Shown: positions 17,176 to 33,649 of the stretch, piece by piece
How positions within the stretch are numbered: position 1 is the first letter of the stretch
Layout: the number at the start of each line of letters is the position of its first letter
Virus record (IMG/VR): IMGVR_UViG_3300043436_003324
DNA: 64,000 nucleotides
Direction: 5' to 3' (one strand)
Source: a virus
Notes under the pieces: model-generated
Database searches by the model: none
Told to the model about the DNA's origin: nothing
Seen by the model: the letters and a program-made list of their open reading frames with translations, nothing else
Made by a program: the position numbers and the translations under genes

Positions 17176-17181
17176 CAACAA

Positions 17182-17312: not shown

Positions 17313-17399
17313 GGAAGATAAACCTTGATGGCGATAGGGTCCGCCTGCTAAGCGAGATGTACCCGTAAGGGGTATTTGGTTCGATTCCAATGTCTTCCT
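17313..17399 (+). tRNA. tRNA-Ser(GCU)
   Basis: CGC-CTGCTAA-GCG; long variable arm. Confidence 0.85.
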
Positions 17400-17403
17400 C
17401 AAC

Positions 17404-17473
17404 TCCCGTATGATCAGGGATCAAAGTTGGCTCATATCCGACTTTAGAGTGGTTCGATACCACTATACGGGAC
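17404..17473 (+). tRNA. tRNA with CAU anticodon (Met or Ile2), shrunken D-loop
   Basis: TCCCGTA/TACGGGA acceptor; TTGG-CTCATAT-CCGA; D-loop of only about 3 nt. Confidence 0.65.
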
Positions 17474-17478
17474 AACAT

Positions 17479-17552
17479 GGTGTTTGTAGCTCAATCGGGA
17501 GAGCGTCGGTTTGTGGAACCGAAGGTAGTGGGATCGAAACCCACCATTCACC
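17479..17552 (+). tRNA. tRNA-His(GUG)
   Basis: TCGGT-TTGTGGA-ACCGA; G-1:C73. Confidence 0.85.
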
Positions 17553-17687
17553 CAAAAGAATTTACAACGGACAAGGCTTAGGCAAGTGAGTTGAGAATGA
17601 GTAGTAGGAGATTTAATCGTTTGGACTACAGAAAGTTTGATACAAGAGATTGGTGGGATGCGAGTGGTTGACCAAAATTCTTTAATT

Positions 17688-17760
17688 GCCCACATAGTTC
17701 AACTGAACAGAATACCCAATTACGGATCGGGAGATAGGAGTTTGAATCTCTTTGAGGGTA
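17688..17760 (+). tRNA. tRNA-Arg(ACG)
   Basis: CCCAA-TTACGGA-TCGGG. Confidence 0.8.
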
Positions 17761-17765
17761 CAACT

Positions 17766-17838
17766 GCCCCCATCGTCCAACTGAACAGGACGTTCCCCTT
17801 CTAAGGGAAAGATCGGAGTTTGAATCTCTGTGGGGGTA
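17766..17838 (+). tRNA. tRNA-Arg(UCU)
   Basis: TTCCC-CTTCTAA-GGGAA. Confidence 0.9.
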
Positions 17839-17845
17839 CAAAACA

Positions 17846-17918
17846 CACATGGTACAGACAAGGTGTCGGTCAGGTCTCCAAAACCTCGACGGGTTAGTTC
17901 GATTCTAACACCATGTGC
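17846..17918 (+). tRNA. tRNA-Trp(CCA)
   Basis: AGGT-CTCCAAA-ACCT. Confidence 0.85.
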
Positions 17919-17963
17919 AAAAATTAATTTTGCCAGTTAAAAAAAATTTTGTATCTTTACAGT

Positions 17964-18458
17964 ATGAAAGACACACTACCATATTGTACTACAGTAAAAG
18001 CAATCAAAGGTTATGAAGAATCCGTAATTGCGAAAAATGAAACCAACGATTGTGTTGTAAGAGCATTTGCATCTTGTTTTGATGTGTCTTACGATTACGC
18101 TCACAAATACGTTAGAGAAAATTTTGGTCGTAGAGATCGTAACGGTACTTATGGTACTGTAGATAAAATGACTAAACTTGCAGAAAATAGAAGTCAAGTA
18201 AACTACAAAAAAGTTAAGTGTGTTGGTAAATTAAACAATTACCGTAGACACACTTTGGAGTACGATGTTAAAGTAAATGGTGAGAGAGTTAAACGTAAAA
18301 TGACTGTGGGTACATTTACAAAACAAAACCCTATTGGGACATTCTTTATGTTGGTTAGCCGTCACGCTTTCACAATCAAAGATGGTGTGGTAATTGGTAA
18401 CCACGAGGATTCAACCAAGAAAAAACGTGTATTACTTCATGCGTTTGAAGTTAAATAA
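17964..18458 (+). CDS. conserved phage protein with NDCVVRA...H motif (possible papain-like fold)
   Basis: start ATG 17964 after a TATCTTTAC promoter variant; Cys...His...Asp pattern. Confidence 0.5.
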   Translation: MKDTLPYCTTVKAIKGYEESVIAKNETNDCVVRAFASCFDVSYDYAHKYVRENFGRRDRNGTYGTVDKMTKLAENRSQVNYKKVKCVGKLNNYRRHTLEYDVKVNGERVKRKMTVGTFTKQNPIGTFFMLVSRHAFTIKDGVVIGNHEDSTKKKRVLLHAFEVK

Positions 18459-18521
18459 GACGGGAGGCGAGAGTTGAGGGTAGAACCGTTAGGATACCTC
18501 AACCAAGTCCTCCCTGAAGAA

Positions 18522-18594
18522 GGACAGGTAGCTCAGTTGGTAGAGCTCAGGATTGAAGATCCTGGAGTCGGGGGTTCGAAACCCTCTCTGTCCA
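18522..18594 (+). tRNA. tRNA-Phe(GAA)
   Basis: CAGGA-TTGAAGA-TCCTG. Confidence 0.9.
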
Positions 18595-18610
18595 CAAATA
18601 AAAAGAAATA

Positions 18611-19066
18611 ATGAACAGAGTATTTAGGACAATTAATGGTGAAGCGATACCTGATGTGGTTAAACACACCTTAGATGTTTTAAAGGAATGTCCTTGGGTT
18701 GAAATACATATCGGTACAGATTCACAAAACCACAGAAGAAGTACCGTATACGTTACGGTAATTGCTTACAGGTATGGTAACAGAGGTGTTCACTACATCC
18801 TTCATAAACAAAAGGTTAAGAAGATTAAAGATAAGTGGACACGTCTTTGGAATGAAGCCGATTATTCAATTGAGGTGGCTGAATGGTTAACTCAAAAAGT
18901 AAAAGTTAAGGTTGAAATAGATTTGGATTATAACTGTGAAGAAAAACACTACAGTTCAAAACTAGTTCCTCCCGTTGTTGGGTGGGCAACGTCGTTAGGT
19001 TATAAATCAAATATTAAACCTGACAATCAAATTGCAACAAGAGCGGCAGATCACCACTGCCGTTAA
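18611..19066 (+). CDS. RNase H-like YkuK family protein
   Basis: IHIGTDSQ...RLWNEADYSIEVA...IDLDYN pattern. Confidence 0.75.
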   Translation: MNRVFRTINGEAIPDVVKHTLDVLKECPWVEIHIGTDSQNHRRSTVYVTVIAYRYGNRGVHYILHKQKVKKIKDKWTRLWNEADYSIEVAEWLTQKVKVKVEIDLDYNCEEKHYSSKLVPPVVGWATSLGYKSNIKPDNQIATRAADHHCR

Positions 19067-19067
19067 T

Positions 19068-19138
19068 GGTCCTGTGTCCGAGTGGTTAGGAGGCGGTCTG
19101 CAAAACCGTTTACGTTGGTTCAAATCCAATCGGGACCT
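19068..19138 (+). tRNA. tRNA-Cys(GCA)
   Basis: GCGGT-CTGCAAA-ACCGT; U73. Confidence 0.9.
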
Positions 19139-19147
19139 CAATAAAAT

Positions 19148-19228
19148 GCCCCTGTGATGGAATGGTAGACATGTCAGATTTAGGGTCTGATGCCGTAAGG
19201 TGTGAGAGTTCGAGTCTCTCCGAGGGTA
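19148..19228 (+). tRNA. tRNA-Leu(UAG)
   Basis: TCAGA-TTTAGGG-TCTGA; variable arm. Confidence 0.9.
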
Positions 19229-19247
19229 CAAACAAAAAAAAGTGAAG

Positions 19248-19490
19248 ATGGAAAAGTTGATGAAAAATAAAGAAGGAGAATACCTATACGTTTTTGATAT
19301 AATTCAAAACGGTAAAGTTGCAGGGTCAAATATTTTGTGGAGTAAGAACTTCATCCAAGTAATGGCGAGTGCAAAAAAAAGATTTGGTAATGTGGATAAT
19401 GAGTCTTTTAAAAGATTAACCAAAGATGAGTACGCAACTATGATCGAGGATCAAAAAACAAAAAAACTTGATAAAAAAAGAAAGTGGTGA
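19248..19490 (+). CDS. small hypothetical protein
   Basis: basic ORF of about 80 aa after tRNA-Leu. Confidence 0.45.
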   Translation: MEKLMKNKEGEYLYVFDIIQNGKVAGSNILWSKNFIQVMASAKKRFGNVDNESFKRLTKDEYATMIEDQKTKKLDKKRKW

Positions 19491-19577
19491 TTTAAATCGT
19501 ATATTGAATATTTATTAATAAAACTTGACACTTTTAAAAAGTATCATATATTTATAACAAAACAAATAAAAACGCAA

Positions 19578-19652
19578 ATGAAAAATTTACATATCATATT
19601 ATTAGGCGGATTGGCGATAGCTGAGGATACTACCTATAAGGAGATGGTATGA
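19578..19652 (+). CDS. putative attenuator leader peptide 2 (24 aa)
   Basis: MKNLHIILLGGLAIAEDTTYKEMV, double stop TGA TAA; GGAGATGG (19640-19647) is complementary to the terminator arm CCATCTCC (19682-19689). Confidence 0.75.
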   Translation: MKNLHIILLGGLAIAEDTTYKEMV

Positions 19653-19676
19653 TAATTTAACACATAATAAATTTTG

Positions 19677-19710
19677 AAAACCCATCTCCAAAAGAGGTGG
19701 GTTTTTTTGT
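19677..19710 (+). terminator. intrinsic terminator (attenuator) before tRNA block 2
   Basis: AAAACCCATCTC-CAAAA-GAGGTGGGTTTT followed by a T run. Confidence 0.85.
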
Positions 19711-19755
19711 TCTTTGAAATTTTGGAAATTAAAAAATAAACAGTATCTTTGTTTT

Positions 19756-20046
19756 ATGATAACATTTGATGATATAGAGTTTAAACCACATGGTATTGGT
19801 AATGGGGTTCACGGATTACTGTTTTTTCCTGGAGGATACGGAATCTCGGTTGTAAGATTTAAATCTCCTTTTGGTGGGGGTGGATCATATACTTCAGATG
19901 ATGATGATTATGAGGTCGCCGTTATTAAAGGAACAAAAGATGATTGGGAAATTTCTTATGACACAAAAATAACTAATGATGTTTTGGGTTATCAAACTAA
20001 AGAGGATATAAATAAATTAATTACTCAAATTTTAAGATACTGTTAA
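19756..20046 (+). CDS. conserved hypothetical phage protein
   Basis: start ATG 19756 after a TATCTTTG promoter; F..GYGISVV...YEVAVI pattern. Confidence 0.55.
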   Translation: MITFDDIEFKPHGIGNGVHGLLFFPGGYGISVVRFKSPFGGGGSYTSDDDDYEVAVIKGTKDDWEISYDTKITNDVLGYQTKEDINKLITQILRYC

Positions 20047-20047
20047 A

Positions 20048-20212
20048 ATGAAAACAAAGGAAAAAAATATCGTACATAAGATGATCTTGGGTAGTCAAAG
20101 AGTTGCTCAAAAAGAACAAGGTTTTTTTGATGGTAGATTTGTTACTAGATCTATGGATTTAAAAAATAATTACACAAGGAAAGAAAAACACAAAAAAAGT
20201 TTGGTAGATTAG
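20048..20212 (+). CDS. 54-aa basic peptide, ArfA-like
   Basis: ...GRFVTRSMDLKNNYTRKEKHKK resembles the ArfA FRQR...SYxRKxKH motif; absent from the ORF track. Confidence 0.4.
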   Translation: MKTKEKNIVHKMILGSQRVAQKEQGFFDGRFVTRSMDLKNNYTRKEKHKKSLVD

Positions 20213-20313
20213 AAAAAACCTTGTATATTTGTAAGACAAACAACGGGGGTAGGAAGTGAGAGGTTGGTGTCCTACTCCCGTGAAGACAGAAGAAGTTCAT
20301 TGAGATAAAAATA

Positions 20314-20398
20314 TAGTGGTTGTAAGAAACGGGAAACTTGTAAAGTACATTAACCTGTTGGCTCAAGATGGTGAAACAAGAGTGTGAGTCAACTACTA
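20314..20398 (+). ncRNA. unassigned structured RNA
   Basis: TAGTGGTTG/CAACTACTA closing stem; follows a promoter, a hairpin and a boxA-like site. Confidence 0.35.
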
Positions 20399-20411
20399 AC
20401 TACATAAATTT

Positions 20412-20484
20412 GTTAGGTGGGCGTAATGAGGGACGGTGCCCGAATCCTATAGGTTGCTTATCCGGTTCGAGTCCGGCCCTGACA
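20412..20484 (+). ncRNA. tRNA-like RNA without a canonical anticodon arm
   Basis: acceptor-like stem and T-arm CCGG-TTCGAGT-CCGG; GAATCC..GGTTGCT core shared with 22463-22545. Confidence 0.55.
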
Positions 20485-20497
20485 AAAAAATTTTAAA

Positions 20498-20621
20498 TAG
20501 GTAAGTGGCGGAATTGGTAGACGCTTAGGTTTATTCCCCGTAAGAAGTCACCGAGATATAGCTGGGGATGTCTCTTGAAAAGGGAACTATATCGTACAGG
20601 TTCGAATCCTGTTTTACCTAC
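20498..20621 (+). ncRNA. Leu-type tRNA-like RNA with about 70 nt between the D- and T-arms
   Basis: TAGGTAA/TTACCTA acceptor, GTGGCGGAATTGGTAGACGC D-arm, ACAGG-TTCGAAT-CCTGT T-arm; no normal anticodon arm. Confidence 0.55.
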
Positions 20622-20703
20622 ATATCGCGGGAGATAAAGTTGATTTCTCTAAAAAAAGTTTGTAGTGATAGGTATTTTTGAGTTTTAATATATATTTATA
20701 TAT

Positions 20704-21297
20704 ATGGAAAAACTTAACAAATATCAGAAAGGGGCACAAACAACAAAGAAAATTTTACAAGAGCGTTCTTTGAAAAATTATTATGATAACCCAAAGATTT
20801 GTAAAAATTGTGGTAAAATAATTGAGGTTAAAGAAAGTGAAAAACCAAGACACGTAAGAAAAAAAACTTTTTGTAATAGTTCTTGTTCTGCGACTTATAA
20901 CAATAAAGTTAGAGAACTGAAAAGAGAAAAAAAAGTAGTTGAAGGTATTAAAAAAGAAAAAAAAGAAAAGTTTGAATTTTTGTTAGATATGACAAAAAAA
21001 GAACTATATGAAAAACACGGAGTTTATTATAAATTTAGGGCTGTAGTTAGAAAACACGCACATTATGTTTTTAATAAACACACAACAAAAAAAGAATGTT
21101 TAATATGTGGATATTCTAATCATGTTGAGGTTTGTCATATAAACTCAGTTTCGTCTTTTGGTGGTGATGAATTAATAAGAAACATAAACTCAATTGATAA
21201 TTTAATCGGTTTATGTCCTAATCATCATTGGGAGTTTGATAACGGAAAAATAGATATATCGCGTGAAGGTGTAATTGGTTGCATGGGACGCTCATAA
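20704..21297 (+). CDS. HNH homing endonuclease with N-terminal Zn-finger
   Basis: CKNCGK...FCNSSC; CLICGY..HVEVCHI...NLIGLCPNHHWEFD; 3' end runs into a tRNA. Confidence 0.85.
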   Translation: MEKLNKYQKGAQTTKKILQERSLKNYYDNPKICKNCGKIIEVKESEKPRHVRKKTFCNSSCSATYNNKVRELKREKKVVEGIKKEKKEKFEFLLDMTKKELYEKHGVYYKFRAVVRKHAHYVFNKHTTKKECLICGYSNHVEVCHINSVSSFGGDELIRNINSIDNLIGLCPNHHWEFDNGKIDISREGVIGCMGRS

Positions 21298-21331
21298 CGT
21301 CTACGGGGTGGTTCAAATCCACGACACGCTA
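21260..21331 (+). tRNA. tRNA-Met(CAU), initiator-like acceptor (C1.U72)
   Basis: GGACG-CTCATAA-CGTCT; CGCG 5' end; lacks the three G-C anticodon-stem pairs of a typical fMet. Confidence 0.7.
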
Positions 21332-21409
21332 CTATAGCAAACCAAGCTTTACTACGATACGGGTAATACCTGTGGGTTAGGGGTGACGGTCAGGAGAGAC
21401 TGACGATTA

Positions 21410-21492
21410 TGCTGACGTACCAGTGGACGCTTATATCGTCTATGACTGTAGTGGTAAGTTTAAAACGTTGGTTCGAATCCAACCGTCAGTAC
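21410..21492 (+). ncRNA. tRNA-like RNA, non-canonical topology
   Basis: 8-bp TGCTGACG/CGTCAGTA stem, GTTGG-TTCGAAT-CCAAC T-arm, nested hairpin GGACG-CTTATAT-CGTCT. Confidence 0.5.
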
Positions 21493-21497
21493 AATAA

Positions 21498-21569
21498 GCG
21501 GGTATCGTATAATGGTTATTACTCCACACTTCCAATGTGGAGATGAGTGTTCGATTCATTCTACCCGCA
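21498..21569 (+). tRNA. tRNA-Gly(UCC)
   Basis: GCGGG 5' end; CCACA-CTTCCAA-TGTGG. Confidence 0.9.
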
Positions 21570-21574
21570 CAAAT

Positions 21575-21647
21575 GGGCCTGATGCCGACGGCAGGTCGAC
21601 TGATTTGCAATCAGATCGTATGGGTTCGATTCCCACAGTGTCCACCA
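21575..21647 (+). tRNA. tRNA-Ala(UGC)
   Basis: CTGA-TTTGCAA-TCAG; G3.U70; encoded CCA. Confidence 0.8.
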
Positions 21648-21878
21648 AATAAACAATTAATACAAATGAATGATGAGAGAAGTTTTATCAGGAACCTCAG
21701 AGTCATCGAAAGTTAAAATGGGTAAAATTAACACGAATACTGACTGGTTGAAGAAACTGAAAAAAACGCTTAATAGAACGAAGTACAAGTTTAGAGTGGG
21801 GAGCGGGTCCCACAAAAAAATTTAAAAAAAGATTTGGTAGATTGAAACAGTTTACATATCTTTGTAATAAAACAAAAT

Positions 21879-21950
21879 GGTCCCATCGACTATCGGTTAG
21901 GTCGCCAGGTTTTCATCCTGGAAAGTCGGGTTCGACTCCCGGTGGGACTA
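21879..21950 (+). tRNA. tRNA-Glu(UUC)
   Basis: CCAGG-TTTTCAT-CCTGG. Confidence 0.9.
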
Positions 21951-22010
21951 CAATGAAATGAACAACATAGCACACAAGTTGTACCTCTACGGTTTTAAAG
22001 TGTGTTTATT

Positions 22011-22086
22011 GGAGATTAGGTCAAATGGTTAAGATGTCGCCCTGTCACGGCGTTCGGAGCGGGTTCGACTCCCGTAATCTCCGCCA
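22011..22086 (+). tRNA. tRNA-Asp(GUC)
   Basis: CGCC-CTGTCAC-GGCG; G73; encoded CCA. Confidence 0.9.
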
Positions 22087-22094
22087 AAAAAAAT

Positions 22095-22181
22095 AGTCAG
22101 GTGGCGGAATTGGATAGACGTAGCCCCATCAGTGGGTAGTGGTGAAAGAAACACATACAGGTTCAAATCCTGTCCTGACTA
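22095..22181 (+). ncRNA. Leu-type tRNA-like RNA with an aberrant anticodon arm
   Basis: AGTCAGG/CCTGACT acceptor, Leu-like D-arm and T-arm; anticodon arm GCCC-CATCAGT-GGGT lacks U33. Confidence 0.55.
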
Positions 22182-22271
22182 CTAAAAAATAAAAATTATG
22201 ACACCAATATTATTTGTATTATTTGTTTTGTTTATCTTTATGGTAAGAAAGAGAAAATAACTCTTTAAAAT

Positions 22272-22358
22272 GCTCGGATGGTGGAATTGGTAGACACGAC
22301 AGGTTTAAGCTCTGTTGACCAGTGGGTTGTGAGGGTTCGAGTCCCTCTTCGAGTACCA
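22272..22358 (+). tRNA. tRNA-Leu(UAA)
   Basis: ACAGG-TTTAAGC-TCTGT; variable arm; encoded CCA. Confidence 0.9.
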
Positions 22359-22366
22359 ACGATAAA

Positions 22367-22453
22367 CTTCAGTACCCGTACCGCCAACGTAGGGTTAAAT
22401 TAGATACAATTTCGTGTTACATTTATGTATGTGCGGGGAGTAGAATGCTGAAG
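22367..22453 (+). ncRNA. unassigned structured RNA
   Basis: CTTCAGTA/TGCTGAAG and CCCGTAC/GTGCGGG stems separated by a GAGTAGAA bulge. Confidence 0.5.
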
Positions 22454-22462
22454 AGTCGGGTT

Positions 22463-22545
22463 TGTCAGGAGTGTAAAGAAGTGTGGTACTGAATCCATCT
22501 GTTAAAGATGGTTGCTCATTGTGGGTTCGAATCCCACCCTGACAT
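22463..22545 (+). ncRNA. tRNA-like RNA, same family as 20412-20484
   Basis: TGTCAGG/CCTGACA, GTGGG-TTCGAAT-CCCAC, GAATCC-hairpin-GGTTGCT core. Confidence 0.55.
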
Positions 22546-22549
22546 CAAA

Positions 22550-22624
22550 GGTCCTATAGCTCAGTTGGTTAGTAGCACTTGACTCATAATCAAGGGGTCG
22601 CAGGTTCGAGTCCTGCTGGGACCA
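22550..22624 (+). tRNA. tRNA-Ile2(CAU, lysidine type) or Met
   Basis: GGTCCT 5' end, CTTGA-CTCATAA-TCAAG, A73; resembles bacterial Ile2. Confidence 0.8.
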
Positions 22625-22694
22625 CAAAAACACTATTTTCTTTTTAAAATAGTATTAATATATTTTTAAAAAAGGGGAGGAATACCCCAAAATT

Positions 22695-22766
22695 GGCTCC
22701 ATAGTTAAATGGATATAACGAATCTCTTCTAAAGATTAGTTCCTAGTTCGATTCTAGGTGGGGCTA
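22695..22766 (+). tRNA. tRNA-Arg(UCU), second copy
   Basis: AATCT-CTTCTAA-AGATT. Confidence 0.85.
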
Positions 22767-22839
22767 CATTTTTTTTAAAAAAATTTTGTACATCTCAGAA
22801 ATTCCCTTATCTTTGTTTAAACCAAAAAACATTAAGGAT

Positions 22840-23788: not shown

Positions 23789-24382
23789 TTATTTAATATC
23801 TGTTGATTTAATTAATGTGTAACTAAATGAGTTACCATGTATTTCTTTGGCTTTTCTACAAATCTTCATGAACTCCTCAAAATCCGCAGATTTTTTAAAT
23901 ACTTGACAACCTTCAGACCAATTCTCAACATATGTTGAATCGGCACCTGCTTTATGAATGTTAATACCATAAACACCTTCAGTAATTTTCTTCTCATCAT
24001 AAATTAGATCTTTATTAGCATCACGATAAACCTTAACGTTTTTCGCTTGACCTAAAGCTTCATATTTACCTTGATGTAGTCTAATTGTGTGAGACCCTCT
24101 GTACTGACCTTCAACCAATCTCGCAACACCATCTTTATTATGGTATTCCATAACACCTTTTTTACCTGGATCTGTAGTTGCTGGCCAAATATGGAATTTC
24201 CATTGACCGTCTACTTTATAGGATAATGTTAAATAATCATCAAAAACATTAGTAACTTTTTGTCCTGTACTCGCATTTCTGATACCAATGATATTCACGT
24301 CATAACCTTTATTGTTTGTGTCCTCAAACCAAACGTAACCTTTGGATTTTACGGCTCCTTCAACCTGTTCTTTTGTGTACAT
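23789..24382 (-). CDS. L,D-transpeptidase (YkuD)-like peptidoglycan enzyme, putative lysin
   Basis: GINIHKAG...NWSEGCQV (His...S-x-G-C catalytic pattern). Confidence 0.7.
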   Translation of the reverse strand: MYTKEQVEGAVKSKGYVWFEDTNNKGYDVNIIGIRNASTGQKVTNVFDDYLTLSYKVDGQWKFHIWPATTDPGKKGVMEYHNKDGVARLVEGQYRGSHTIRLHQGKYEALGQAKNVKVYRDANKDLIYDEKKITEGVYGINIHKAGADSTYVENWSEGCQVFKKSADFEEFMKICRKAKEIHGNSFSYTLIKSTDIK

Positions 24383-24450
24383 AATTTATAATTTTATTTA
24401 TAAATATTATTATTTTTAGAAAGTAAAGAGTTTGTTGATATTTATTTGAT

Positions 24451-26049
24451 ATGACAAACTCACGTAAAATACTTTTATATTCATCAATATCTTTGATGAT
24501 TATATTCCTTTTAACTAAAACATTAATTTTATTAAATTTGGTTATCCCTAGTGACATTACAAGGATTATCGAAATGTTTTGTTTTTTAACATTTTCACCT
24601 GTATTTTATTTTTTAATGAAATCTCAAACTGTTGACTTAAAAGGTAATCTAATAAAACAAATTAAAGATAGTGAGGAATTTATTAATGCTGCGGCTATTG
24701 TTTCCGTTGCTGATAAGTACGGTAAGATTACGTACGTTAATAAAAAATTTGAGGGGGTTTCAGGATGGTCTTTAGAGGAGGTTAAAGGTAAGGACCATAT
24801 TGTTGTTAACTCTGGATTACAACCTGATGGATATTGGGGTAAGATGTATGAAACCGTAATGAAAGGTGAGATATGGAATGACGTTGTAACCAATAAAGGA
24901 AAGTCAGGAGAGTTATACTATGTTGATACATACATCAAAGCGAATTTTGATAAGTATGGTAAATTAGAAGGGTTTTCATCAATTAGACAAGATGTCACAG
25001 AACTTAAAAGAAAAGAAGTTGAGATCCGTAATAGAATGAATGCGATAAATAAATCTAATGCGGTTATTGAGTTTGATTTACAAGGGAACATTATTTTTGT
25101 TAATGAATTGTTTTTAAATACTATGGGTTATTCTTCACCGGATGAAATAATTGGAAAACACCACAGAATTTTTATAGATGAAGATCATTTAAAAAGTGAG
25201 GAGTATTCTCTTTTTTGGAAAAAATTAAACGATGGGGTGTTATTTACAGGTGAAATTACTAGAGTTAAAAAAGATGGTTCTTTAGTATATCTACAAGCAA
25301 CATACAATCCAGTTATTGGTTTAGATGGTAAGGTTTATCGTGTTATGAAAATTGCAACAGATGTTACCAATTCCTATGAACAAAAGAAAGAGATTGAAAA
25401 GAAAAATACCTATTTAGAACACGCAGCAAAGATATTAAGACACGATATGCATTCAGGTATTAATACATATATGCCAAGAGGATTAAGTTCTTTAGAACGA
25501 AGATTAAGTCCTGAAGACATTAAATCATTAAAAATTGAATCCCCCATTAAAATGATTAAAGAAGGGTTAAAACATACACAAAAAGTATATAAAGGTGTTT
25601 ATGAGTTTACCAACTTAGTTAAAAAAGACGTTGTTTTAAATAAAGATGAATGTAATCTAAAAAGTATACTTGAAGATTATCTATCATCTACCGCATATAT
25701 TAGTCAAGTTATTATTGACGAGTTACCAACTATTAAAGTAAATGAAGCACTATTTTGTACTGCGGTTGACAATTTAATTAGAAATGGGTTGAAGTATAAT
25801 GATTCTGATACCAAATTCGTTAAAATAACTTCAGATGAAAAATATGTATACATACAAGATAATGGTAGAGGAATCACACAAGAAGATTTTGATCACCTAT
25901 CAAAACCTTATATAAGAAAAGAAGGACAAAAAGAATCTGGTACAGGGTTAGGATTAAATATTTGTGTTGCAATATTAGAAGAACACGGATTTGATATAAC
26001 CTGTGAAAAAAATGAAATAGGAACTAAAATGAAAATTAAATTTAAATGA
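24451..26049 (+). CDS. membrane-anchored PAS-PAS sensor histidine kinase
   Basis: 2 N-terminal TMs; PAS1 ITYVNKKF..VSGWSLEEVKG; PAS2 VIEFDLQG..YLQATYNPV; H-box RHDMHSG; N-box LIRNGLKYN; G1 DNGRG; G2 GTGLGL. Confidence 0.9.
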   Translation: MTNSRKILLYSSISLMIIFLLTKTLILLNLVIPSDITRIIEMFCFLTFSPVFYFLMKSQTVDLKGNLIKQIKDSEEFINAAAIVSVADKYGKITYVNKKFEGVSGWSLEEVKGKDHIVVNSGLQPDGYWGKMYETVMKGEIWNDVVTNKGKSGELYYVDTYIKANFDKYGKLEGFSSIRQDVTELKRKEVEIRNRMNAINKSNAVIEFDLQGNIIFVNELFLNTMGYSSPDEIIGKHHRIFIDEDHLKSEEYSLFWKKLNDGVLFTGEITRVKKDGSLVYLQATYNPVIGLDGKVYRVMKIATDVTNSYEQKKEIEKKNTYLEHAAKILRHDMHSGINTYMPRGLSSLERRLSPEDIKSLKIESPIKMIKEGLKHTQKVYKGVYEFTNLVKKDVVLNKDECNLKSILEDYLSSTAYISQVIIDELPTIKVNEALFCTAVDNLIRNGLKYNDSDTKFVKITSDEKYVYIQDNGRGITQEDFDHLSKPYIRKEGQKESGTGLGLNICVAILEEHGFDITCEKNEIGTKMKIKFK

Positions 26050-26642
26050 GAAAAGTTATAACATTATTATTTACAATTATATCATTTTTAAGTTTATCAC
26101 AAAACTATCCAGTACAGACAAAACTTAAAGGTGATTCTGTGGTTATAATGACTACAGAACAATATAGAGATATTGAATTAATACTAAGTAATCAAAGGTA
26201 TAGAGTTAATGGGTATAAGGAAGATATCTCTATTCAGGAAAAAATAATTGATAGTTTAACTAAGGTTTGTAACAGAAGAGTTTATGCGATTGATAGTTTA
26301 GATACCGTAATTAAACATAAGTTTTACACTTATGATAGTTTACAAAGTAAAATAAATGTTATTGAACGTTGGTTATATACCTCATCAATAAATAATACAT
26401 ATTTATACTATTCATATTCAGATACAACAGTGATGTCAATTAATTTAAGTAGTTACTTTTTTATAGGTAATAGACGTACAGGTAATTTTTCCTTGGTAAG
26501 GAGAGGTCCGGTGTCTCAGGACAATGAATGGAAAAAATACAATATACAATATCCCCAAGAACCTGGATTAAATTGGGAATTAAACTATAAAGAAAAATGG
26601 AGACCTGTTGTTGTTAGATATCCATATAAAATCAAACTATAA
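26046..26642 (+). CDS. secreted/periplasmic coiled-coil protein
   Basis: signal peptide ending LSLSQ; coupled to both kinase genes. Confidence 0.6.
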   Translation: MRKVITLLFTIISFLSLSQNYPVQTKLKGDSVVIMTTEQYRDIELILSNQRYRVNGYKEDISIQEKIIDSLTKVCNRRVYAIDSLDTVIKHKFYTYDSLQSKINVIERWLYTSSINNTYLYYSYSDTTVMSINLSSYFFIGNRRTGNFSLVRRGPVSQDNEWKKYNIQYPQEPGLNWELNYKEKWRPVVVRYPYKIKL

Positions 26643-26644
26643 TT

Positions 26645-28081
26645 ATGAAAAATACTATATTATTAATTTTATTATTTTTAATTAGTTTCGCTAATCTAAA
26701 TTCCCAAACAATAAAAAAACAATCAAATGAAATTGTTTTGAATCAGGGAGTACCTACGTGTCCTAATGATCCTAAAATCACAGAACTAATCGATAAGGTG
26801 GGAATTAATAATTTATTAAAACCTAAAAAAAACATTACCAAACCCGAAGCAAATATATGTAGAGAGATTGGTGTTTTACTAAATAAAAGGGGGTCGTATG
26901 ATGCTGCTGACTGGTACCTTGAAAGAGTTAAAGGGTATGTTGATGTTGTAGAGTTGGCACCTGAAGTCGTATTTGAGAACCCAAAAGATGATGTGACTGA
27001 AGTCTCTGCGGATGTCGCAGCAAGTTTGGCTAAGGATAAAGAATTTTTAAGTAGTTTACCGAAATCTTATGATAACGTTTCCCCTTCAGATATGAAAAAA
27101 CTTGCAAATGAGATTGAAGGTAAGTTACAAAAACTAATTGAAGAAAAAGAAGAACTTCTTAAAAATGGTGAAAGTAAGGATGTTATTGACACCAAAGATG
27201 AGACAATAAAAACACTAGGTAAAGAGAAAAACATTATTGGATTAAACCTTAAAAATGGAGAACTAAAAGGAGAAACCAAAGATTTAAAGGTTGAAAGAAA
27301 TAAATTAAAGACGTATTTAATTTGGGTATCTATAATACTTTTTATATTAGTCCTGACGGTAGTTGTATTAACACAAAGAAAAACTATTAAAGTACAAGAT
27401 GTTGAAATTGAAAGTCAGATAAGAGATATCAATAAGAAAAATACTTACTTAGAGTACGCTGCTAGAATCATAAGACACGACATGCATTCAGGAATCAACA
27501 CATATATCCCAAGAGGGTTATCATCATTAGAAAAAAGAATTTCAGTAGACGAGATGAACAACCTAAAGATAACATCCCCAATTAAAATGATAAAAGATGG
27601 GTTGGCACACACACAAAAGGTATATAAAAGTGTTTATGAATTTACAAACCTTGTAAAGAATACTGTAGTGTTAGATAGAGATATGGTTGACATAAAAGAA
27701 TCATTATTAAAATATTTAACAAATACTTCATATAAAAATCAAGTAGAACTTGATGATTTAGTAACATTAAATGTCAATGAAACTTTATTTTGGAATGCTA
27801 TTGATAACTTAATTAAAAATGGGCTAAGATATAATAATAGTGATACTAAAATTGTTAAAATTTATATGGAAAACAATGATTTGATTGTTGAGGATAATGG
27901 TATTGGTTTTACACAAAAAGAATTTGAAAATGTTACTGGTGGAAAAATAAAAAAAGATGCGGATTCTGAAAGTGGTTTAGGGTTAGGAATCACTAAAACA
28001 ATATTAGAAGAACACGGATTTAATATGGAGTTTGAAAAACTAGAAACAGGAACAAAAATTAAAATTAAAATAAACAAATAA
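26645..28081 (+). CDS. periplasmic-sensor histidine kinase
   Basis: signal peptide, extracytoplasmic domain, one TM, H-box RHDMHSG, N-box LIKNGLRYN, DNGIG, GLGLG. Confidence 0.88.
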   Translation: MKNTILLILLFLISFANLNSQTIKKQSNEIVLNQGVPTCPNDPKITELIDKVGINNLLKPKKNITKPEANICREIGVLLNKRGSYDAADWYLERVKGYVDVVELAPEVVFENPKDDVTEVSADVAASLAKDKEFLSSLPKSYDNVSPSDMKKLANEIEGKLQKLIEEKEELLKNGESKDVIDTKDETIKTLGKEKNIIGLNLKNGELKGETKDLKVERNKLKTYLIWVSIILFILVLTVVVLTQRKTIKVQDVEIESQIRDINKKNTYLEYAARIIRHDMHSGINTYIPRGLSSLEKRISVDEMNNLKITSPIKMIKDGLAHTQKVYKSVYEFTNLVKNTVVLDRDMVDIKESLLKYLTNTSYKNQVELDDLVTLNVNETLFWNAIDNLIKNGLRYNNSDTKIVKIYMENNDLIVEDNGIGFTQKEFENVTGGKIKKDADSESGLGLGITKTILEEHGFNMEFEKLETGTKIKIKINK

Positions 28082-28096
28082 AAACAAAAAACAAAA

Positions 28097-28534
28097 ATGA
28101 TTGATTCAATATTATTAGTTGATGATGAGGATTTATTCCACTTAGTATTTGAAGATGCGTGTTCTTTATTGGACATAAGTTTGTCTCTTAAATCTTTAAA
28201 CAGTTCGGATGAGGCGGCGAAACTATTCCAAAAATGGTTTCAGGATAAAAATAACGAAGATAAACCAGAATGTGTGTTTGTTGATTTAAACATTATAGGT
28301 AGTTCTTTTGATGGTATAGAATTAATTAGAAAAATTAATTTTGAGTATGGTAATCACGTAGTTGTTGGTATAATATCATCATCAAACGAACCTGAAGAAC
28401 AATCAAAAGCGATACAAGCAGGGGCTCAATTTTGGATTATTAAATCTGATGATATTGAACCACGTTTAGAAGAGTTTAGAAAAGATTATGAAGGATATAA
28501 AAATAGAACGTTACCGTTTAAAGTATATAAATGA
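28097..28534 (+). CDS. single-domain response regulator (CheY-like receiver)
   Basis: ILLVDDED, VFVDLN (phospho-Asp), IISSS, IIKS; no output domain. Confidence 0.9.
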   Translation: MIDSILLVDDEDLFHLVFEDACSLLDISLSLKSLNSSDEAAKLFQKWFQDKNNEDKPECVFVDLNIIGSSFDGIELIRKINFEYGNHVVVGIISSSNEPEEQSKAIQAGAQFWIIKSDDIEPRLEEFRKDYEGYKNRTLPFKVYK

Positions 28535-29205
28535 TAAAGTTAGACAAAAATAGTGAAGAAAATTTAATTAAACTCTTTGAGTCCAAGAACATTGGAATTG
28601 AGGGGAACATTATTAAGTTGTTTGAAACGGATAATGAGGAATTTAAATCATACTTAACTAAGTGTTCTGAAAAAGATAAAGATTCAAGACGTAAAAGATT
28701 AGAGATAACAAAAAAAATACAATTACAAAACAATGAATTATCTAATCTAAACGAACAGAACCAAAAGATGATGGATGATCTTCAGTTAACATTAAAAGAA
28801 GCTGAGGAACAAAAAGAACAAATAGAAAAACAGAACGAGGAATTGATGGATTGGAGAGTGGGGAATGAAAAAATCCAACAGGAACTTCAAAAAGAAATGA
28901 TTAAATCTGAACAGGCTAGAATTCAGTCAGAAACGGCAAAAACAAACGCATTAAACGACTTGGACATACTCCAAAAAAGAAACCAAACAGAATTAATATC
29001 CAATATAGTAAAAGTTGCTCTTTATATTATTATTGGTGTTGGTATTGTTACCACAGGAGTGTATGTTTTTACTCTTATAATGGGTAAAGATACTCAAGTA
29101 ATAAGTGCTACTTGGTCTAATATATTTGGGATACTTCTAACAAACGCCTTTTCAATAGTGGGAACTATTATGGGTATTAAATACGCAACAGAAAATAAAC
29201 AATAA
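28531..29205 (+). CDS. coiled-coil protein with two C-terminal TM helices
   Basis: long heptad Q/E/K region followed by two hydrophobic helices; overlaps the receiver gene. Confidence 0.6.
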   Translation: MIKLDKNSEENLIKLFESKNIGIEGNIIKLFETDNEEFKSYLTKCSEKDKDSRRKRLEITKKIQLQNNELSNLNEQNQKMMDDLQLTLKEAEEQKEQIEKQNEELMDWRVGNEKIQQELQKEMIKSEQARIQSETAKTNALNDLDILQKRNQTELISNIVKVALYIIIGVGIVTTGVYVFTLIMGKDTQVISATWSNIFGILLTNAFSIVGTIMGIKYATENKQ

Positions 29206-29215
29206 AATAAAAACT

Positions 29216-30040
29216 ATGTTATTAAAAGTAGGATCGAAAGGGGACGATGTAAAAAAACTTCAAGAAAAATTAGGATTAACGGCTGATGGTTCTTTTGGAC
29301 CTAAAACTGAAACGGTAGTAAAAGAATGGCAAACTAAAAACGGATTAACCGCTGATGGTATTGTTGGTGATGGTACTTGGGCTAAAATGTTTGGGACAAC
29401 TCAAGTGGTTAAAGAAGATGTTGTAATCACACCGGTAACAGGATTGAACATTGAAAAACTAAAAGGACATATTCCTGATGTTGTTATTGCACAGATATCG
29501 GAAACCGCAAAGAAATTTAATATCACAACCAATCTTAGACTTGCTCACTTTTTATCACAGTGTGGACACGAGTCAGGAGGATTTAAAGCGGTATCAGAAA
29601 ATTTAAATTATTCTGCTGACGGATTAAAAAGAACGTTTGGTAAATACTTTCCTGGTAACTTGGCTGAATCATATGCTAAACAACCTGAAAAGATCGCATC
29701 AAGGGTATATGCTAACCGTATGAGTAACGGAGATGAGACATCAAAAGAAGGTTATAAATTTAGAGGTAGAGGTTACATACAATTAACAGGAAAAGGAAAT
29801 TATACAAGTTTTACAAAATTTATTGGTGAGGATTGTGTGTCAAATCCTGATCTTGTTGCAACCAAATATCCATTGGCTTCGGCAGCGTTCTTTTTTGACT
29901 CAAACAAACTTTGGTCAATATGTGATAAGGGGGCGGATGATGTCACAGTTACCGCAGTTACAAAACGAGTTAATGGTGGAACTATTGGATTACCTGATAG
30001 AATAAAACACTTCAAAGAGTACTATAACTTATTAAAGTGA
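29216..30040 (+). CDS. endolysin: peptidoglycan-binding domain plus glycoside hydrolase family 19
   Basis: LKVGSKGDDVKKLQ..LTADGIVG (PGBD); AHFLSQCGHESGGF, FRGRGYIQLTG..NY, VTKRVNGG (GH19). Confidence 0.9.
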   Translation: MLLKVGSKGDDVKKLQEKLGLTADGSFGPKTETVVKEWQTKNGLTADGIVGDGTWAKMFGTTQVVKEDVVITPVTGLNIEKLKGHIPDVVIAQISETAKKFNITTNLRLAHFLSQCGHESGGFKAVSENLNYSADGLKRTFGKYFPGNLAESYAKQPEKIASRVYANRMSNGDETSKEGYKFRGRGYIQLTGKGNYTSFTKFIGEDCVSNPDLVATKYPLASAAFFFDSNKLWSICDKGADDVTVTAVTKRVNGGTIGLPDRIKHFKEYYNLLK

Positions 30041-30077
30041 TATTTATAATAAAATAAACTATAAAAAAATAAATTTT

Positions 30078-30245
30078 ATGAAATTATCTAAAGAACAAAT
30101 TATGGGGATTATCAGACACGGATTAACATTCGTTGGTGGTATCTTTATAATGAAAGGACTTGCTAGTGAGTCAGTAGTTACGGAAATTATCGGTGGTGCA
30201 ATGACATTAACAGGTGCCATTTGGTCTATTGTCGATAAAAAATAA
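30078..30245 (+). CDS. small two-TM holin-like protein (55 aa)
   Basis: MKLSKEQIMGIIRHGLTFVGGIFIMKG...GAIWSIVDKK right after the endolysin; not in the ORF track. Confidence 0.6.
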   Translation: MKLSKEQIMGIIRHGLTFVGGIFIMKGLASESVVTEIIGGAMTLTGAIWSIVDKK

Positions 30246-30262
30246 ATTTAGTGGATAGACGT

Positions 30263-30290
30263 AAAACCCTCAAATTTTTTGGGGGTTTTT
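30263..30290 (+). terminator. intrinsic terminator
   Basis: AAAACCCTC..GGGGGTTTTT. Confidence 0.6.
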
Positions 30291-30327
30291 AATTTAACGT
30301 AATATTTATCATATAAATCAAATTAAT

Positions 30328-30981
30328 ATGAAGAAATTAATTTCAGAATCGGAAAAAACCAGAATTAGAAAAATGAATTCTATTGAGGAAGGTTGGTTTT
30401 CTGATGTTCTTGATACCATAAAAAAATCAGATACGATAAAAGATATTAAGAAAAAATTTAAAGAATTAACTGGAGTTGATTTTGAAGAAAAAGAAAAGAC
30501 AGGAGAAGTAACAAAAGAATATAAAAGTTACAAAATTGAAGATCCTTCAGACGAAGACATAAAATTCTACGAAAAAGTTTTAGAAAAAATAGACGCACCT
30601 ATAACAAAGGAAAATATGGTGTTTTTTTATTCTTGGAGACAAGCCGAAGGGGCAAAATCTTCATACAATCCATTTAACACAACACAATCTATGCCTGAAT
30701 CTACGTTTTGGAATTGTTTAAGTAAAAAAGAGGGTAAATGTCTTAGTGGCGTTAGAAATTATAAAAACGAAAAGGACGGTATTGAAGCAACCGTAAAAAC
30801 ATTGACAAATGGTAGATATGATTGTATTGTTAATGGATTGAAAAAAAATAAAGGAGCAAAAGAGATTGCTCAATGTTCTAGTTTAGATACTTGGGGAACA
30901 AAAGACGGAATTAGTAAAGTTTTAAGTGTAGGAAAAATAACTCCACCTGAAATCTCAAGATCATTAGTTAAAAAAGTTTAA
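30328..30981 (+). CDS. lysozyme-like (putative virion muralytic) protein
   Basis: WRQAEG..YNPFNTT..GVRNY..GIEATVKTLTNGRY pattern. Confidence 0.5.
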   Translation: MKKLISESEKTRIRKMNSIEEGWFSDVLDTIKKSDTIKDIKKKFKELTGVDFEEKEKTGEVTKEYKSYKIEDPSDEDIKFYEKVLEKIDAPITKENMVFFYSWRQAEGAKSSYNPFNTTQSMPESTFWNCLSKKEGKCLSGVRNYKNEKDGIEATVKTLTNGRYDCIVNGLKKNKGAKEIAQCSSLDTWGTKDGISKVLSVGKITPPEISRSLVKKV

Positions 30982-30986
30982 TAAAT

Positions 30987-31595
30987 ATGGAAAGTTATGT
31001 AGGAATTATAATAGCATTTATAACAGGAGTTGTTGGTCCCATATTACTTCTTTATATTAAAAAGAAATTAGAGAATAAAGAAAAACCGGATATGGTTAAA
31101 GACACATTGAGGGTTGCGGAGTTGGTAACAAACAAAATAGAACATATTAAAGATGAGTTTAATGCCGATAGGGTTTGGATAACTCAATTTCACAATGGAG
31201 GTAACTTCTACCCAACAGGTAAATCAATGGCTAAGTTTTCAATAATGTACGAAACAGTACATCCAGGAGTTCAATCCGTACAAACTAATTTTCATAATAT
31301 TCCCGTAAATTTATTTTCAAAATCAATAAATCAATTATTAAGTAATGATGTAATTGAGGTGTCCGACTTCAAAGATGAAACAATTGCAACATACGGATTA
31401 AAATACATTGCCGAAGACACGGGATGTAAATCAAGTTACTTATTTGCAATTAAAACAATTGATGATAGATTTATAGGCACTTTAGGTCTTGATTATACAA
31501 AAAGAAAAACAAAACTTGACATTGAATCAATAAATCATTTATTGGTTCATGCAACTTCTTTAGGTGGAGTTTTAATGACGCACTTACAACAATAA
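30987..31595 (+). CDS. single-TM plus GAF-domain protein (T4 T-holin-like architecture)
   Basis: N-terminal TM; FNADRVWITQFHNG...KSSYLFAI...FIGTLGLDY GAF pattern. Confidence 0.6.
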   Translation: MESYVGIIIAFITGVVGPILLLYIKKKLENKEKPDMVKDTLRVAELVTNKIEHIKDEFNADRVWITQFHNGGNFYPTGKSMAKFSIMYETVHPGVQSVQTNFHNIPVNLFSKSINQLLSNDVIEVSDFKDETIATYGLKYIAEDTGCKSSYLFAIKTIDDRFIGTLGLDYTKRKTKLDIESINHLLVHATSLGGVLMTHLQQ

Positions 31596-31631: not shown

Positions 31632-32114
31632 ATGAATATTTTCTTTTTAGATTTTGATACAAAAAAATGCGCTCAATATCATTGTGATAAACACGTTGTC
31701 AAGATGATATTAGAAACCGCACAACTTTTATGTGGGACTCACTGGGTAATTGGAAATGAGGCCCCATATAAATTATCCCACAAAAATCACCCATGTTCAA
31801 TATGGGTTAGAGAGTCCCTCTCAAATTATCTTTATTTATGTGATCTTGGTTTGGAGTTATGTAAAGAATACACTTATCGATATGGTAAAAGACACAAATC
31901 TCAGGATGTAATAGAATGGTGTTTAATAAATAAACCAAATATCCACGATGTTGATTTTACATCCCCACCATTAGCGATGGGTGATGAATTTAAAATAGGA
32001 AACGATGTGATCGAATCATATAGAAATTATTACCGAGAAGGAAAAAAACTTATCGTTAGTTGGAAAAACAGGGTTATTCCAAGTTGGTTTCAACCCGACG
32101 AAGTATTTATATGA
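31632..32114 (+). CDS. pyrimidine-dimer DNA glycosylase / endonuclease V family
   Basis: MNIFFLD...HCDKHVVKMILETAQLL...HKNHPC signature. Confidence 0.8.
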   Translation: MNIFFLDFDTKKCAQYHCDKHVVKMILETAQLLCGTHWVIGNEAPYKLSHKNHPCSIWVRESLSNYLYLCDLGLELCKEYTYRYGKRHKSQDVIEWCLINKPNIHDVDFTSPPLAMGDEFKIGNDVIESYRNYYREGKKLIVSWKNRVIPSWFQPDEVFI

Positions 32115-33649
32115 TAAAATCATATATGAAACATTTTTTATCTGAAGAAATAAGAAGAATAAAAACATTAATGTCAATTAATGAATCAATAGATACTACG
32201 GCACCTAAATTTTCAACTAAAATATTTGATAAAGTGGATCCTACTTGGGGAGGGGGACCTAATTCACATGCCGCAAGACATCCAGACCCAACAGGAAAGG
32301 ATTGGTGGAGTAATAACGCCTACGATATAATGGCACCTGAAGGTACACCTGTTTATTCAATATCCGATGGATATGTTGATAAAATTACAGATAACCCTCC
32401 CGGATTAAAATCTAGTGGAGGTAAAAGAATTTATGGTGACAGTATTACCGTTAGGGGTAGTGGTGGTAATCCTGACGTTTTTTATACCCATATTACAAAT
32501 ATTGTTATTGAGGATGGGGATCCTATTAAAAAAGGTCAATTACTTGCATATATTGTAAAGGGTGAGTTAGGAATTCCTGATCATGCACACGTTTCAGTTA
32601 AAGTTGGTGATGTTAAAGATTTCGTTGACGTAAACGGTAATATTGAGGGTGTGGATAATAGTTTATTAGGTAATTTATCAATCACAACAAGTAAAGGTGA
32701 AGAAACCCCTATTGATACTAAAACAATAATGGGTACGGCAGCCGGATTAACCGCAGCCGCTCTAAGTTCTTTAGATATTAAAAGACCTGAATCAGATATA
32801 AGTGGTATTGCTTCAAGATTTGGTATTACAGACGTTGATGTTAATACTGATTCCGTATCTGGCGTCTTAAATAAAATAATACTATCTTCAGAAGGTCTCG
32901 GTACCGATGAAACTTCAATACATGATGCAATTAAAAAATTAAGTAGTTGTTATGAACTTGATGAACTAAATAAAATGGTTGAAAGAAAGGAAATTGATGG
33001 GAGAAAATATAAAGACGTATTTGATTACATTAATAGTGAAATGAATTATGGAGATGAACTATTTGTTAAAAGTTTAGTTAAAACAATAAATAATATTTGC
33101 CCAAATACTGTAACAGATAAAGGGAACCAAATTTTACGTGTTAATAAAAGTATTTACGTAGGTGGAGGAATTGATAAAGTAGTTCCAATAAAACTTCTTA
33201 ATGATTTAAAATCTTATGGTCTTTCAGATAATGCAGCCAAAGGAGTTGTTGCAAACGCTTTTGGTGAAAGTGTTTTTAACGTTAAGGCTAAAGGGGATTC
33301 AGGAAGTTACGGGGAAAGTTCAAATAGATCAATAAACATTGATGGTAAAAAATACTGTTCTTTTGGTTTATGGCAATATAATATTTGTGGTGGAATGGGA
33401 GTTTCATTCTTGAAGAACTATAACGTAAATGTTGATACTTCTTCAGATGAAGAAAAATTAAGAATTTTATTTGATTATAATAAACAAGTTGAGTTTATGT
33501 CAAAAAGAATAAAAGAAGAACAAATTAACAGTGAGAAGGACGTAAGAACTTGGATAGATTGGATTGTTGATAATGTTGAGAGACCTTCAGATAGGACTTC
33601 CGCAAAAATAAAAAGGCAAGAATTTGCAAAACAACAAGGATGGTCTTAA
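32111..33649 (+). CDS. M23 peptidase + annexin-like repeat + phage-tail lysozyme fusion
   Basis: YDIMAPEGTPVYS..YTHI..HAH (M23); EGLGTDETSIHDAI (annexin-like); AAKGVVANAFGES..FGLWQY (tail lysozyme). Confidence 0.7.
   Translation: MIKSYMKHFLSEEIRRIKTLMSINESIDTTAPKFSTKIFDKVDPTWGGGPNSHAARHPDPTGKDWWSNNAYDIMAPEGTPVYSISDGYVDKITDNPPGLKSSGGKRIYGDSITVRGSGGNPDVFYTHITNIVIEDGDPIKKGQLLAYIVKGELGIPDHAHVSVKVGDVKDFVDVNGNIEGVDNSLLGNLSITTSKGEETPIDTKTIMGTAAGLTAAALSSLDIKRPESDISGIASRFGITDVDVNTDSVSGVLNKIILSSEGLGTDETSIHDAIKKLSSCYELDELNKMVERKEIDGRKYKDVFDYINSEMNYGDELFVKSLVKTINNICPNTVTDKGNQILRVNKSIYVGGGIDKVVPIKLLNDLKSYGLSDNAAKGVVANAFGESVFNVKAKGDSGSYGESSNRSINIDGKKYCSFGLWQYNICGGMGVSFLKNYNVNVDTSSDEEKLRILFDYNKQVEFMSKRIKEEQINSEKDVRTWIDWIVDNVERPSDRTSAKIKRQEFAKQQGWS

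Follow-up and report, generated by a model that had tools for sequence, protein, structure and literature searches.

Experiments have revealed regulated timing of host lysis in very few systems, above all the lysis inhibition of T-even phages and ICP1. In Staphylococcus, the two-component system LytSR is tied to the holin- and antiholin-like membrane proteins LrgAB and CidAB, which control murein hydrolase activity, and LytR is a DNA-binding transcription regulator encoded on the bacterial chromosome. Single-domain response regulators, such as CheY on FliM or DivK on DivL, PleC and DivJ, act allosterically on partner proteins. Here we analyse a set of two-component signalling genes that lies in the lysis cassette of IMG/VR virus record IMGVR_UViG_3300043436_003324; the whole stretch of 64,000 nucleotides is called the window. 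The window is a piece of an uncultured, low-GC freshwater jumbo phage. In function it comes closest to T4 lysis inhibition, in which holin T is combined with the periplasmic antiholin RI and the cytoplasmic antiholin RIII (PMC11413866), and to TeaA/ArrA of ICP1 (PMC7182436). The one receiver mentioned in a survey of jumbo phages is divergent and has no relation to signalling by kinases (PMC7824862), and a literature search found no publication on a phage two-component lysis module or a PAS-domain holin.

The gene string spans 24451-30245 on the plus strand and encodes, in this order, the sensor kinase HK1, the secreted protein p198, the sensor kinase HK2, a stand-alone receiver, the coiled-coil membrane hairpin protein cc224, an endolysin and a holin of 55 amino acids. 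Every gene that an earlier annotation, made from the letters alone (the sequence-only reading), had placed in this region is present there. HK1 and p198 as well as the receiver and cc224 overlap in an ATGA, and the other gaps measure 2-15 nt. The endolysin gene begins 10 nt past cc224, the holin gene follows 37 nt past the endolysin gene, and no terminator-like site was found on the plus strand between 24451 and 30040. The endolysin (29216-30040, plus strand) matches PG_binding_1 (50.5 bits, cutoff 23), Glyco_hydro_19 (37.3 bits, cutoff 25.5) and phrog_181 (E 1e-66), and the small holin (30078-30245, plus strand) belongs to Phage_holin_10 (Pam3 gp28; PF23987, E 6e-15, 55.4 bits against a cutoff of 27). 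Because a GH19 endolysin and a Pfam-recognised holin stand together here, the region is a true lysis cassette, and the signalling module lies inside it, in the same string, as had been proposed.

HK1 (24451-26049, plus strand) consists of an anchor with two transmembrane (TM) helices, the domains PAS1 and PAS2, a DHp domain with H331 and an ATPase domain. It was matched by PAS_3 (E 1.8e-17), PAS_9 and HATPase_c (E 9e-16, 58.7 bits, cutoff 26.4) in Pfam. HK2 (26645-28081, plus strand) has a signal-peptide-like N-terminus, an extracytoplasmic region of about 200 amino acids, a TM helix at residues 219-240, a DHp domain with H278 and an ATPase domain (HATPase_c, E 2e-10, 41.2 bits, cutoff 26.4). 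Both kinases have the N, G1, F and G2 boxes, as aligned with HK853, and in a phmmer alignment H331 of HK1 pairs with the phospho-His of HK853. The Pfam model HisKA matches neither HK1 nor HK2, and the loop between the two DHp helices is unusually long. Across both DHp helices the two kinases are 85% identical, compared with only 35-60% in the ATPase domain, which bears out the earlier observation of a common H-box. Given these near-identical DHp helices, both kinases should phosphorylate the same residue, D63 of the single receiver. With their residues intact, HK1 and HK2 look active, and the domains and catalytic residues that are present indicate a complete, intact two-component module carried by a phage, as originally suggested.

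Regarding the signals, residues 80-200 of HK1 (PAS1) give a partial match to TIGR02938, the NifL N-terminal PAS model (E 1e-26), and tblastn finds matches of PAS1 to Aer. The FAD-type likeness to Aer and NifL that the sequence-only reading had noted thus recurs in the N-terminal part of this model, and a bound flavin is suggested only by this similarity. As PAS1 is NifL/Aer-like, HK1 can best be guessed to read a redox or energy signal. For the periplasmic side, p198 (26046-26642, plus strand) is a protein of 198 amino acids with a signal peptide and no cysteine lipobox. It matched no family in Pfam, NCBIfam or PHROG and gave no lead in the Atlas (best score 0.78), and it shows no similarity to the periplasmic region of HK2. 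It evolves fast (mean column identity 41%) and was detected only alongside HK2 (11 of 14 loci). We consider p198 a likely periplasmic partner of HK2. Superinfection as the cue for HK2 and heterodimers of HK1 and HK2 are speculation.

The receiver (28097-28534, plus strand) has 145 amino acids, no output domain and a conserved C-terminal extension. Response_reg (PF00072) matches it with 36.3 bits (cutoff 30.2), and the solved natural receiver closest to it is 3ilh, at a distance (E 4e-6). In an alignment of 20 diverse homologues (A2, mean column identity 89%) D9, D10, D63, S94-96 and K116 are invariant, and a ratio of nonsynonymous to synonymous substitution rates (dN/dS) of 0.054 shows purifying selection. 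Directly behind it, cc224 (28531-29205, plus strand) is divided into an N-terminal domain (residues 1-58, the N-domain), a coiled coil (about 59-152) and a TM hairpin (153-224). In an AF2 model (pLDDT 84) the small N-terminal domain is followed by a helix of about 150 residues, which continues into the first TM helix, and then by the second TM helix. The dN/dS is 0.14 for cc224 and 0.08 for the hairpin part alone. An exhaustive profile search with cc224 yielded 264 representative proteins among 1.84 billion (1.84e9), and the hairpin protein forms 6,668 clusters at 90% identity. Only viral clusters were returned by the Atlas search, and the hairpin part is known from viral sequences only. A CheZ-like DxxxQ or CheX-like ExxN phosphatase motif was also considered for cc224; no exact motif is present, and only D145, Q148 and Q152 are conserved on one face of the helix.

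To follow the module across related phages 80 loci were fetched from IMG/VR, 76 of them with enough sequence downstream and 56 with enough upstream. The gene for cc224 stands directly 3' of the receiver gene in all 80, and also in two further, distant loci. One kinase lies upstream in 35 of the 56 loci; two or three were scored in the other 21, although in seven of these one kinase may have been matched in pieces. Of the 76 loci, 30 have a GH19 endolysin gene immediately after cc224 and 10 have it further downstream, at no more than 1.5 kb; in another 12 the gene is on the opposite strand, some 4 kb upstream.

A second form of the hairpin protein dispenses with the relay. In members of the cc224 family the N-domain is replaced, in front of the coiled coil and hairpin, by PAS-PAS (P0168), by a single PAS (P0170, P0160) or by GAF (P0138). 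The PAS domain of P0160 resembles PAS1 of HK1, and that of P0168 resembles PAS2. This one-component form was found on at least 253 IMG/VR contigs, and no kinase or receiver gene lies near the fusion in any of 63 loci on phage contigs. The N-domain thus occurs only downstream of a receiver, and where a sensor domain takes its place the relay is gone, which points to the N-domain as the receiving end and to the hairpin as the output. Likewise, since PAS domains are fused directly to the hairpin, the PAS signal should end at the hairpin. The sequence-only reading had expected the receiver to act by contact with the adjacent coiled-coil protein with two TM helices; the constant synteny (80/80) and the fusions that bypass the relay speak for such contact. 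On these comparisons the path from sensor to kinase, receiver, N-domain and hairpin appears well supported, and cc224 is proposed as the output of the relay.

The neighbourhood of the one-component genes was counted in 40 loci with 2.5 kb of sequence on each side. A GH19-type lysin gene or a gene for a candidate cell-wall enzyme, here termed ldt-like, is present within this distance in 30 of them, the ldt-like homologues in 10. A further two loci carry T4-type lysozyme (GH24, Phage_lysozyme) and/or Peptidase_M15_3 directly downstream, giving 32 of 40 with four families. By a rough estimate, which is no computed null, two lysis enzymes would have about 4% of a 300-kb genome within 2.5 kb of one or the other. 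In one contig an M15_3 peptidase gene comes after the short PAS form, and GH19-like and glucosaminidase genes are found about 1.2 kb from the GAF form. The sensor-hairpin gene of 20 loci stands directly before the lysin gene or one to two small genes upstream of it (at most 1.6 kb), and in most cases further small TM proteins are encoded nearby. A constant membrane protein beside swapping lysin families is the classical signature of a component of lysis cassettes. The argument for a lysis role of the hairpin that follows from the varied architectures and lysin families is stronger than the counts. Like a holin or antiholin, cc224 has two TM helices, and its gene lies next to endolysin genes from various families in different phages.

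We therefore consider, with moderate confidence, that the phosphorelay controls hole formation through a hairpin that belongs to the lysis machinery. In this mechanism HK1 would read the cytoplasmic state through its PAS domains, and HK2, probably together with the secreted p198, would read a periplasmic cue. Both kinases would phosphorylate D63 of the receiver, which would then dock on the N-terminal domain of cc224. The resulting change would pass along the coiled coil of about 95 residues to the near-invariant TM hairpin. As an antiholin or co-holin of the 55-amino-acid holin, or as a gated holin in its own right, the hairpin could alter the formation of holes, and this would set the time at which the GH19 endolysin reaches the wall. 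Judging from the gene content, viruses with the module probably adjust the bursting of their host to sensed signals.

Several observations weigh against this mechanism. No match to cc224 was found in the curated holin and antiholin families of Pfam, NCBIfam and PHROG, and a fold search returned nothing from PDB and only one uncharacterised homologue from BFVD. With 224 amino acids and a large cytoplasmic part the protein is unlike typical holins, and the window already has a separate holin. The second kinase and p198 are present in only about one of three or four related phages. In 24 of the 76 relay loci no homologue of the GH19 endolysin lies within about 9 kb, although other lysin families were not searched there; one of these loci (L053) is flanked by genes for a phosphoesterase and proteins of unknown function. 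The two distant loci with the trio of kinase, receiver and cc224 have no GH19 endolysin homologue nearby either, one lying beside topoisomerase II genes and the other beside genes for leucine-rich repeat (LRR) proteins. In addition, the loci are phylogenetically related, and there were fewer independent events than the counts suggest. The linkage to lysis genes in relatives is therefore recurrent but not universal.

The loci with no GH19 endolysin homologue nearby, the lack of a holin family match for cc224 and the separate holin would suit a relay and hairpin that control a membrane event other than lysis, such as superinfection exclusion, an adjustment of membrane potential or transport in the course of infection, or a counter-defence switch, the closeness to lysis genes then reflecting a shared accessory or late region. 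A periplasmic sensor with a fast-evolving secreted partner and recombining sensor domains would also fit a conflict system. We regard this explanation as unlikely, because the hairpin lies beside at least four unrelated families of candidate cell-wall hydrolases, in various architectures and phage groups, and because of the 20 one-component loci in which the gene lies so close before the lysin gene. Of the earlier idea that lysis timing is set by a phosphorelay, the intact module, the path from receiver to cc224 and the position in the cassette were retained.

Comparison of the nearest record (L001) with the window points to exchange of the sensor parts. Its flanking proteins are 97-100% identical to those of the window, and it is without p198 and HK2. 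The HK1 orthologue of L001 is 86-96% identical to HK1 of the window in the transmitter, but for the TM and PAS parts identity falls to 23-70%; dS between the two is saturated in the sensor part (1.7-2.5) and 0.64 in the core. From the saturated dS and the low identity of the sensor part, next to a constant core, receiver and cc224, we conclude that the sensor domains are exchanged by recombination. The hot spot corresponds to 24451-25380 of the window and 532-1470 of L001. A hybrid of HK1 and HK2 was considered for the L001 kinase and rejected, as the protein alignment shows an orthologue of HK1 in which the sensor part has been replaced.

The N-domain of cc224 also occurs outside the hairpin family. 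In five proteins (P0247, P0256, P0257, P0264, P0265) it is fused to HisKA and HATPase_c instead of the hairpin. Genes for such N-domain kinases (P0247, P0257, P0276, P0279) stand directly after a gene for a receiver of 143 amino acids, with overlapping stop and start, in 4 of 4 contexts, and on three of the four contigs the other genes are ordinary bacterial ones. Bacteroidota is the label of one NCBI homologue, and the gene content of L138 is of the Bacteroidota type (T9SS sorting domain, SusG-like amylase, MadL/M). The three-gene cascade of sensor kinase, 143-amino-acid receiver and soluble N-domain kinase lies at 7051-11014 of L138, 179-2523 of L135 and 8359-10993 of L139; in L135 it is followed by a gene for an AraC-type regulator. 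Compared with the phage, the L135 receiver is 72% identical, the core of the upstream kinase 61%, with the same H-box, and the N-domain 37%. Thus the Bacteroidota cascade resembles the phage module in the H-box, the receiver, the N-domain whose gene overlaps the receiver stop and a first kinase with PAS/GAF sensors that vary. It differs in that the third protein ends in a soluble kinase and not in a TM hairpin, and in that no lysis genes are nearby.

This likeness raises the question whether the main role of the module is cross-talk with a homologous cascade of the host, in which the phage receiver would drive or block the host N-domain kinase, or the N-domain of cc224 would read or soak up the host receiver and so reprogram the signalling of the host. 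The same three-gene order on contigs of bacterial gene content (L138, L135) and the 72% identity of the receiver are in line with such a role. It is nevertheless quite improbable in our view, as the phage encodes all parts of a closed pathway and the one-component forms need no host partner; moreover, the hairpin part comes from viral sequences only.

The cellular homologues mean that the genes came from bacteria or are common to them, and the module could then be a recently acquired, functionless passenger of bacterial signalling genes. Conservation already contradicts this. Relatives of the receiver at 81-97% identity were found on more than 560 viral contigs in IMG/VR, dN/dS values are between 0.05 and 0.14, and the catalytic residues are invariant. 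The search for a recent passenger transfer that the sequence-only reading had called for was carried out in 185,579 species genomes and revealed no near-identical bacterial locus; the cascade of Bacteroidota is homologous (61-72% identity) but has another output. Only two matches were obtained in these genomes, L129 (WBXG01000047.1) and L130 (CBCXTS010000020.1), on contigs binned into metagenome-assembled genomes of Verrucomicrobia and Alphaproteobacteria. L129 carries T4-type topoisomerase II genes, and L130 has a weak baseplate-wedge match and many frame breaks; both are probably mis-binned phage contigs. A functionless passenger is thus extremely improbable.

Taking both forms together, a wider proposal can be made, which we put forward tentatively, as falling a little short of probable. 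In abundant freshwater phages, the coiled coil with the TM hairpin may represent a class of lysis proteins that is new and gated by signals. As a modular output it would be wired directly to PAS or GAF domains in some phages or, in jumbo phages, through a phosphorelay captured from Bacteroidota with a new receiver-docking domain, and the timing of lysis would read the redox or energy state of the host together with a periplasmic cue.

The assignment of the window to a freshwater jumbo phage is based on its tRNAs, its T4-type terminase, related contigs and lake-water metagenomes. The DNA has about 30% G+C and carries a block of 22 tRNA genes at 15890-22767. Within this block a tRNA-SeC (anticodon tca) was called at 22095-22182, and a tRNA-Ile (anticodon tat) at 21399-21492 is unusually long with 94 nt. 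The T4-type large terminase (48042-49814) shares only 27% identity with its nearest counterparts in GenBank phages, those of an uncultured huge phage and of Flavobacterium phage immuto. Related contigs in IMG/VR reach 322 kb, and near-identical sequence is present in 24 DNA metagenome studies, 23 of them labelled as lake water and the remainder unspecified; no RNA data set was listed with it. Against GenBank phages neither the region nor the receiver or cc224 gave a nucleotide or protein match, and HK1 gave distant PAS or ATPase matches only. A gene for a Lon-like ATP-dependent protease (phrog_4871, E 2e-234) lies at 40096-42159 on the minus strand.

A promoter-like TATTTAT is located at 24439-24445 on the plus strand, 12 nt 5' of the HK1 start codon. 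The motif occurs 86 times in the window (54 +/- 6 expected) and 24 of 75 genes, the terminase gene among them, have it upstream at a distance of at most 40 nt, compared with 2.7% of background windows. Copies of (A)TATTTAT stand 7-40 nt 5' of start codons on both strands, for example at 289, 1955, 20693, 24439, 36590, 48021 and 51874. It is probably the main promoter element of the phage, and the leaders would then be very short. The motif upstream of the operon had been taken for a late-type signal; its presence and enrichment are real, but a marking of late genes could not be demonstrated.

Divergent from the string, the ldt-like candidate cell-wall enzyme (23789-24382, minus strand, 197 amino acids) matches phrog_3000 (E 2e-35) and phrog_33083, annotated as endolysin (E 7e-12). 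H143, S156, G158 and C159 (His...Ser-x-Gly-Cys) are invariant in 15 homologues, a motif that does not by itself establish membership of a family. Pfam gave no match even at E 10, PDB searches with the sequence and a profile gave spurious matches only, and the AF2 model (pLDDT 50) is too poor to judge the fold. With no YkuD match in Pfam or PDB, the former label of an L,D-transpeptidase-like protein was not confirmed, leaving the motif and the PHROG endolysin match. Behind the holin gene, a protein of 217 amino acids (30328-30981, plus strand) matches no family, is present in some relatives only, and nothing ties it to the module. Its N-terminus (30328-30400) resembles an amphipathic leader ending in Ile/Leu-x-Glu; if this leader is real, the protein may be targeted to the capsid instead of acting in lysis. 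The following protein p202 (30987-31595, plus strand) has 202 amino acids, with a single TM helix at the N-terminus and a globular domain that is conserved (phrog_38864, E 6e-7). It travels with the endolysin and the holin and has a faint match to holin_LLH (E 0.025), under the cutoff. A likeness of p202 to the T4 holin T gains no support from the sequence, since its profile (A5) finds no relative in PDB and no T4 T chain. Just beyond the cassette lie a pyrimidine-dimer glycosylase homologue (31632-32114; Pyr_excise, E 1e-5) and a protein of 529 amino acids (32060-33649), whose PHROG matches are of the metallo-endopeptidase and lysin types and which may be a wall hydrolase associated with the virion.

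If the proposed mechanism is true, it introduces a new principle, the control of a lysis-cassette membrane protein by a phosphorelay or directly by a sensor domain, and lysis timing would be a regulated decision and not a simple holin clock. Phages of this kind abound in lakes. The parts of the module are small and suited to expression in laboratory strains, and they offer testable objects: a receiver-docking domain shared with the Bacteroidota cascade, a membrane effector and a natural set of swapped sensor domains.

None of the ten open reading frames between 23789 and 32114 has a Pfam match to T, RI or RIII, and no relation to TeaA/ArrA of ICP1 was found. The likeness to T4 lysis inhibition would be one of function: a T4-like phage would tune its lysis time to a signal, and periplasmic and cytoplasmic inputs would meet on a membrane protein of the lysis cassette. 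Unlike in T4 and ICP1, the input would be a His-Asp phosphorelay or a fused PAS/GAF domain and not a stoichiometric antiholin, and the target would be a coiled-coil TM hairpin. In contrast to LytSR, the phage receiver is without an output domain, is expected to act by protein contact and is found in a virulent-type jumbo phage. Like CheY and DivK it is a stand-alone receiver with a conserved surface and no effector domain, here with the partner encoded alongside, and in the Bacteroidota homologues this partner is a kinase, as with DivK. Unlike CheY and DivK, the docking domain (residues 1-58 of cc224) is undescribed, and the phage output would be a TM hairpin. Two-component signalling and the control of holins and antiholins are thus known kinds of regulation, and what is new in this locus is the hairpin effector and the docking domain, both undescribed so far.

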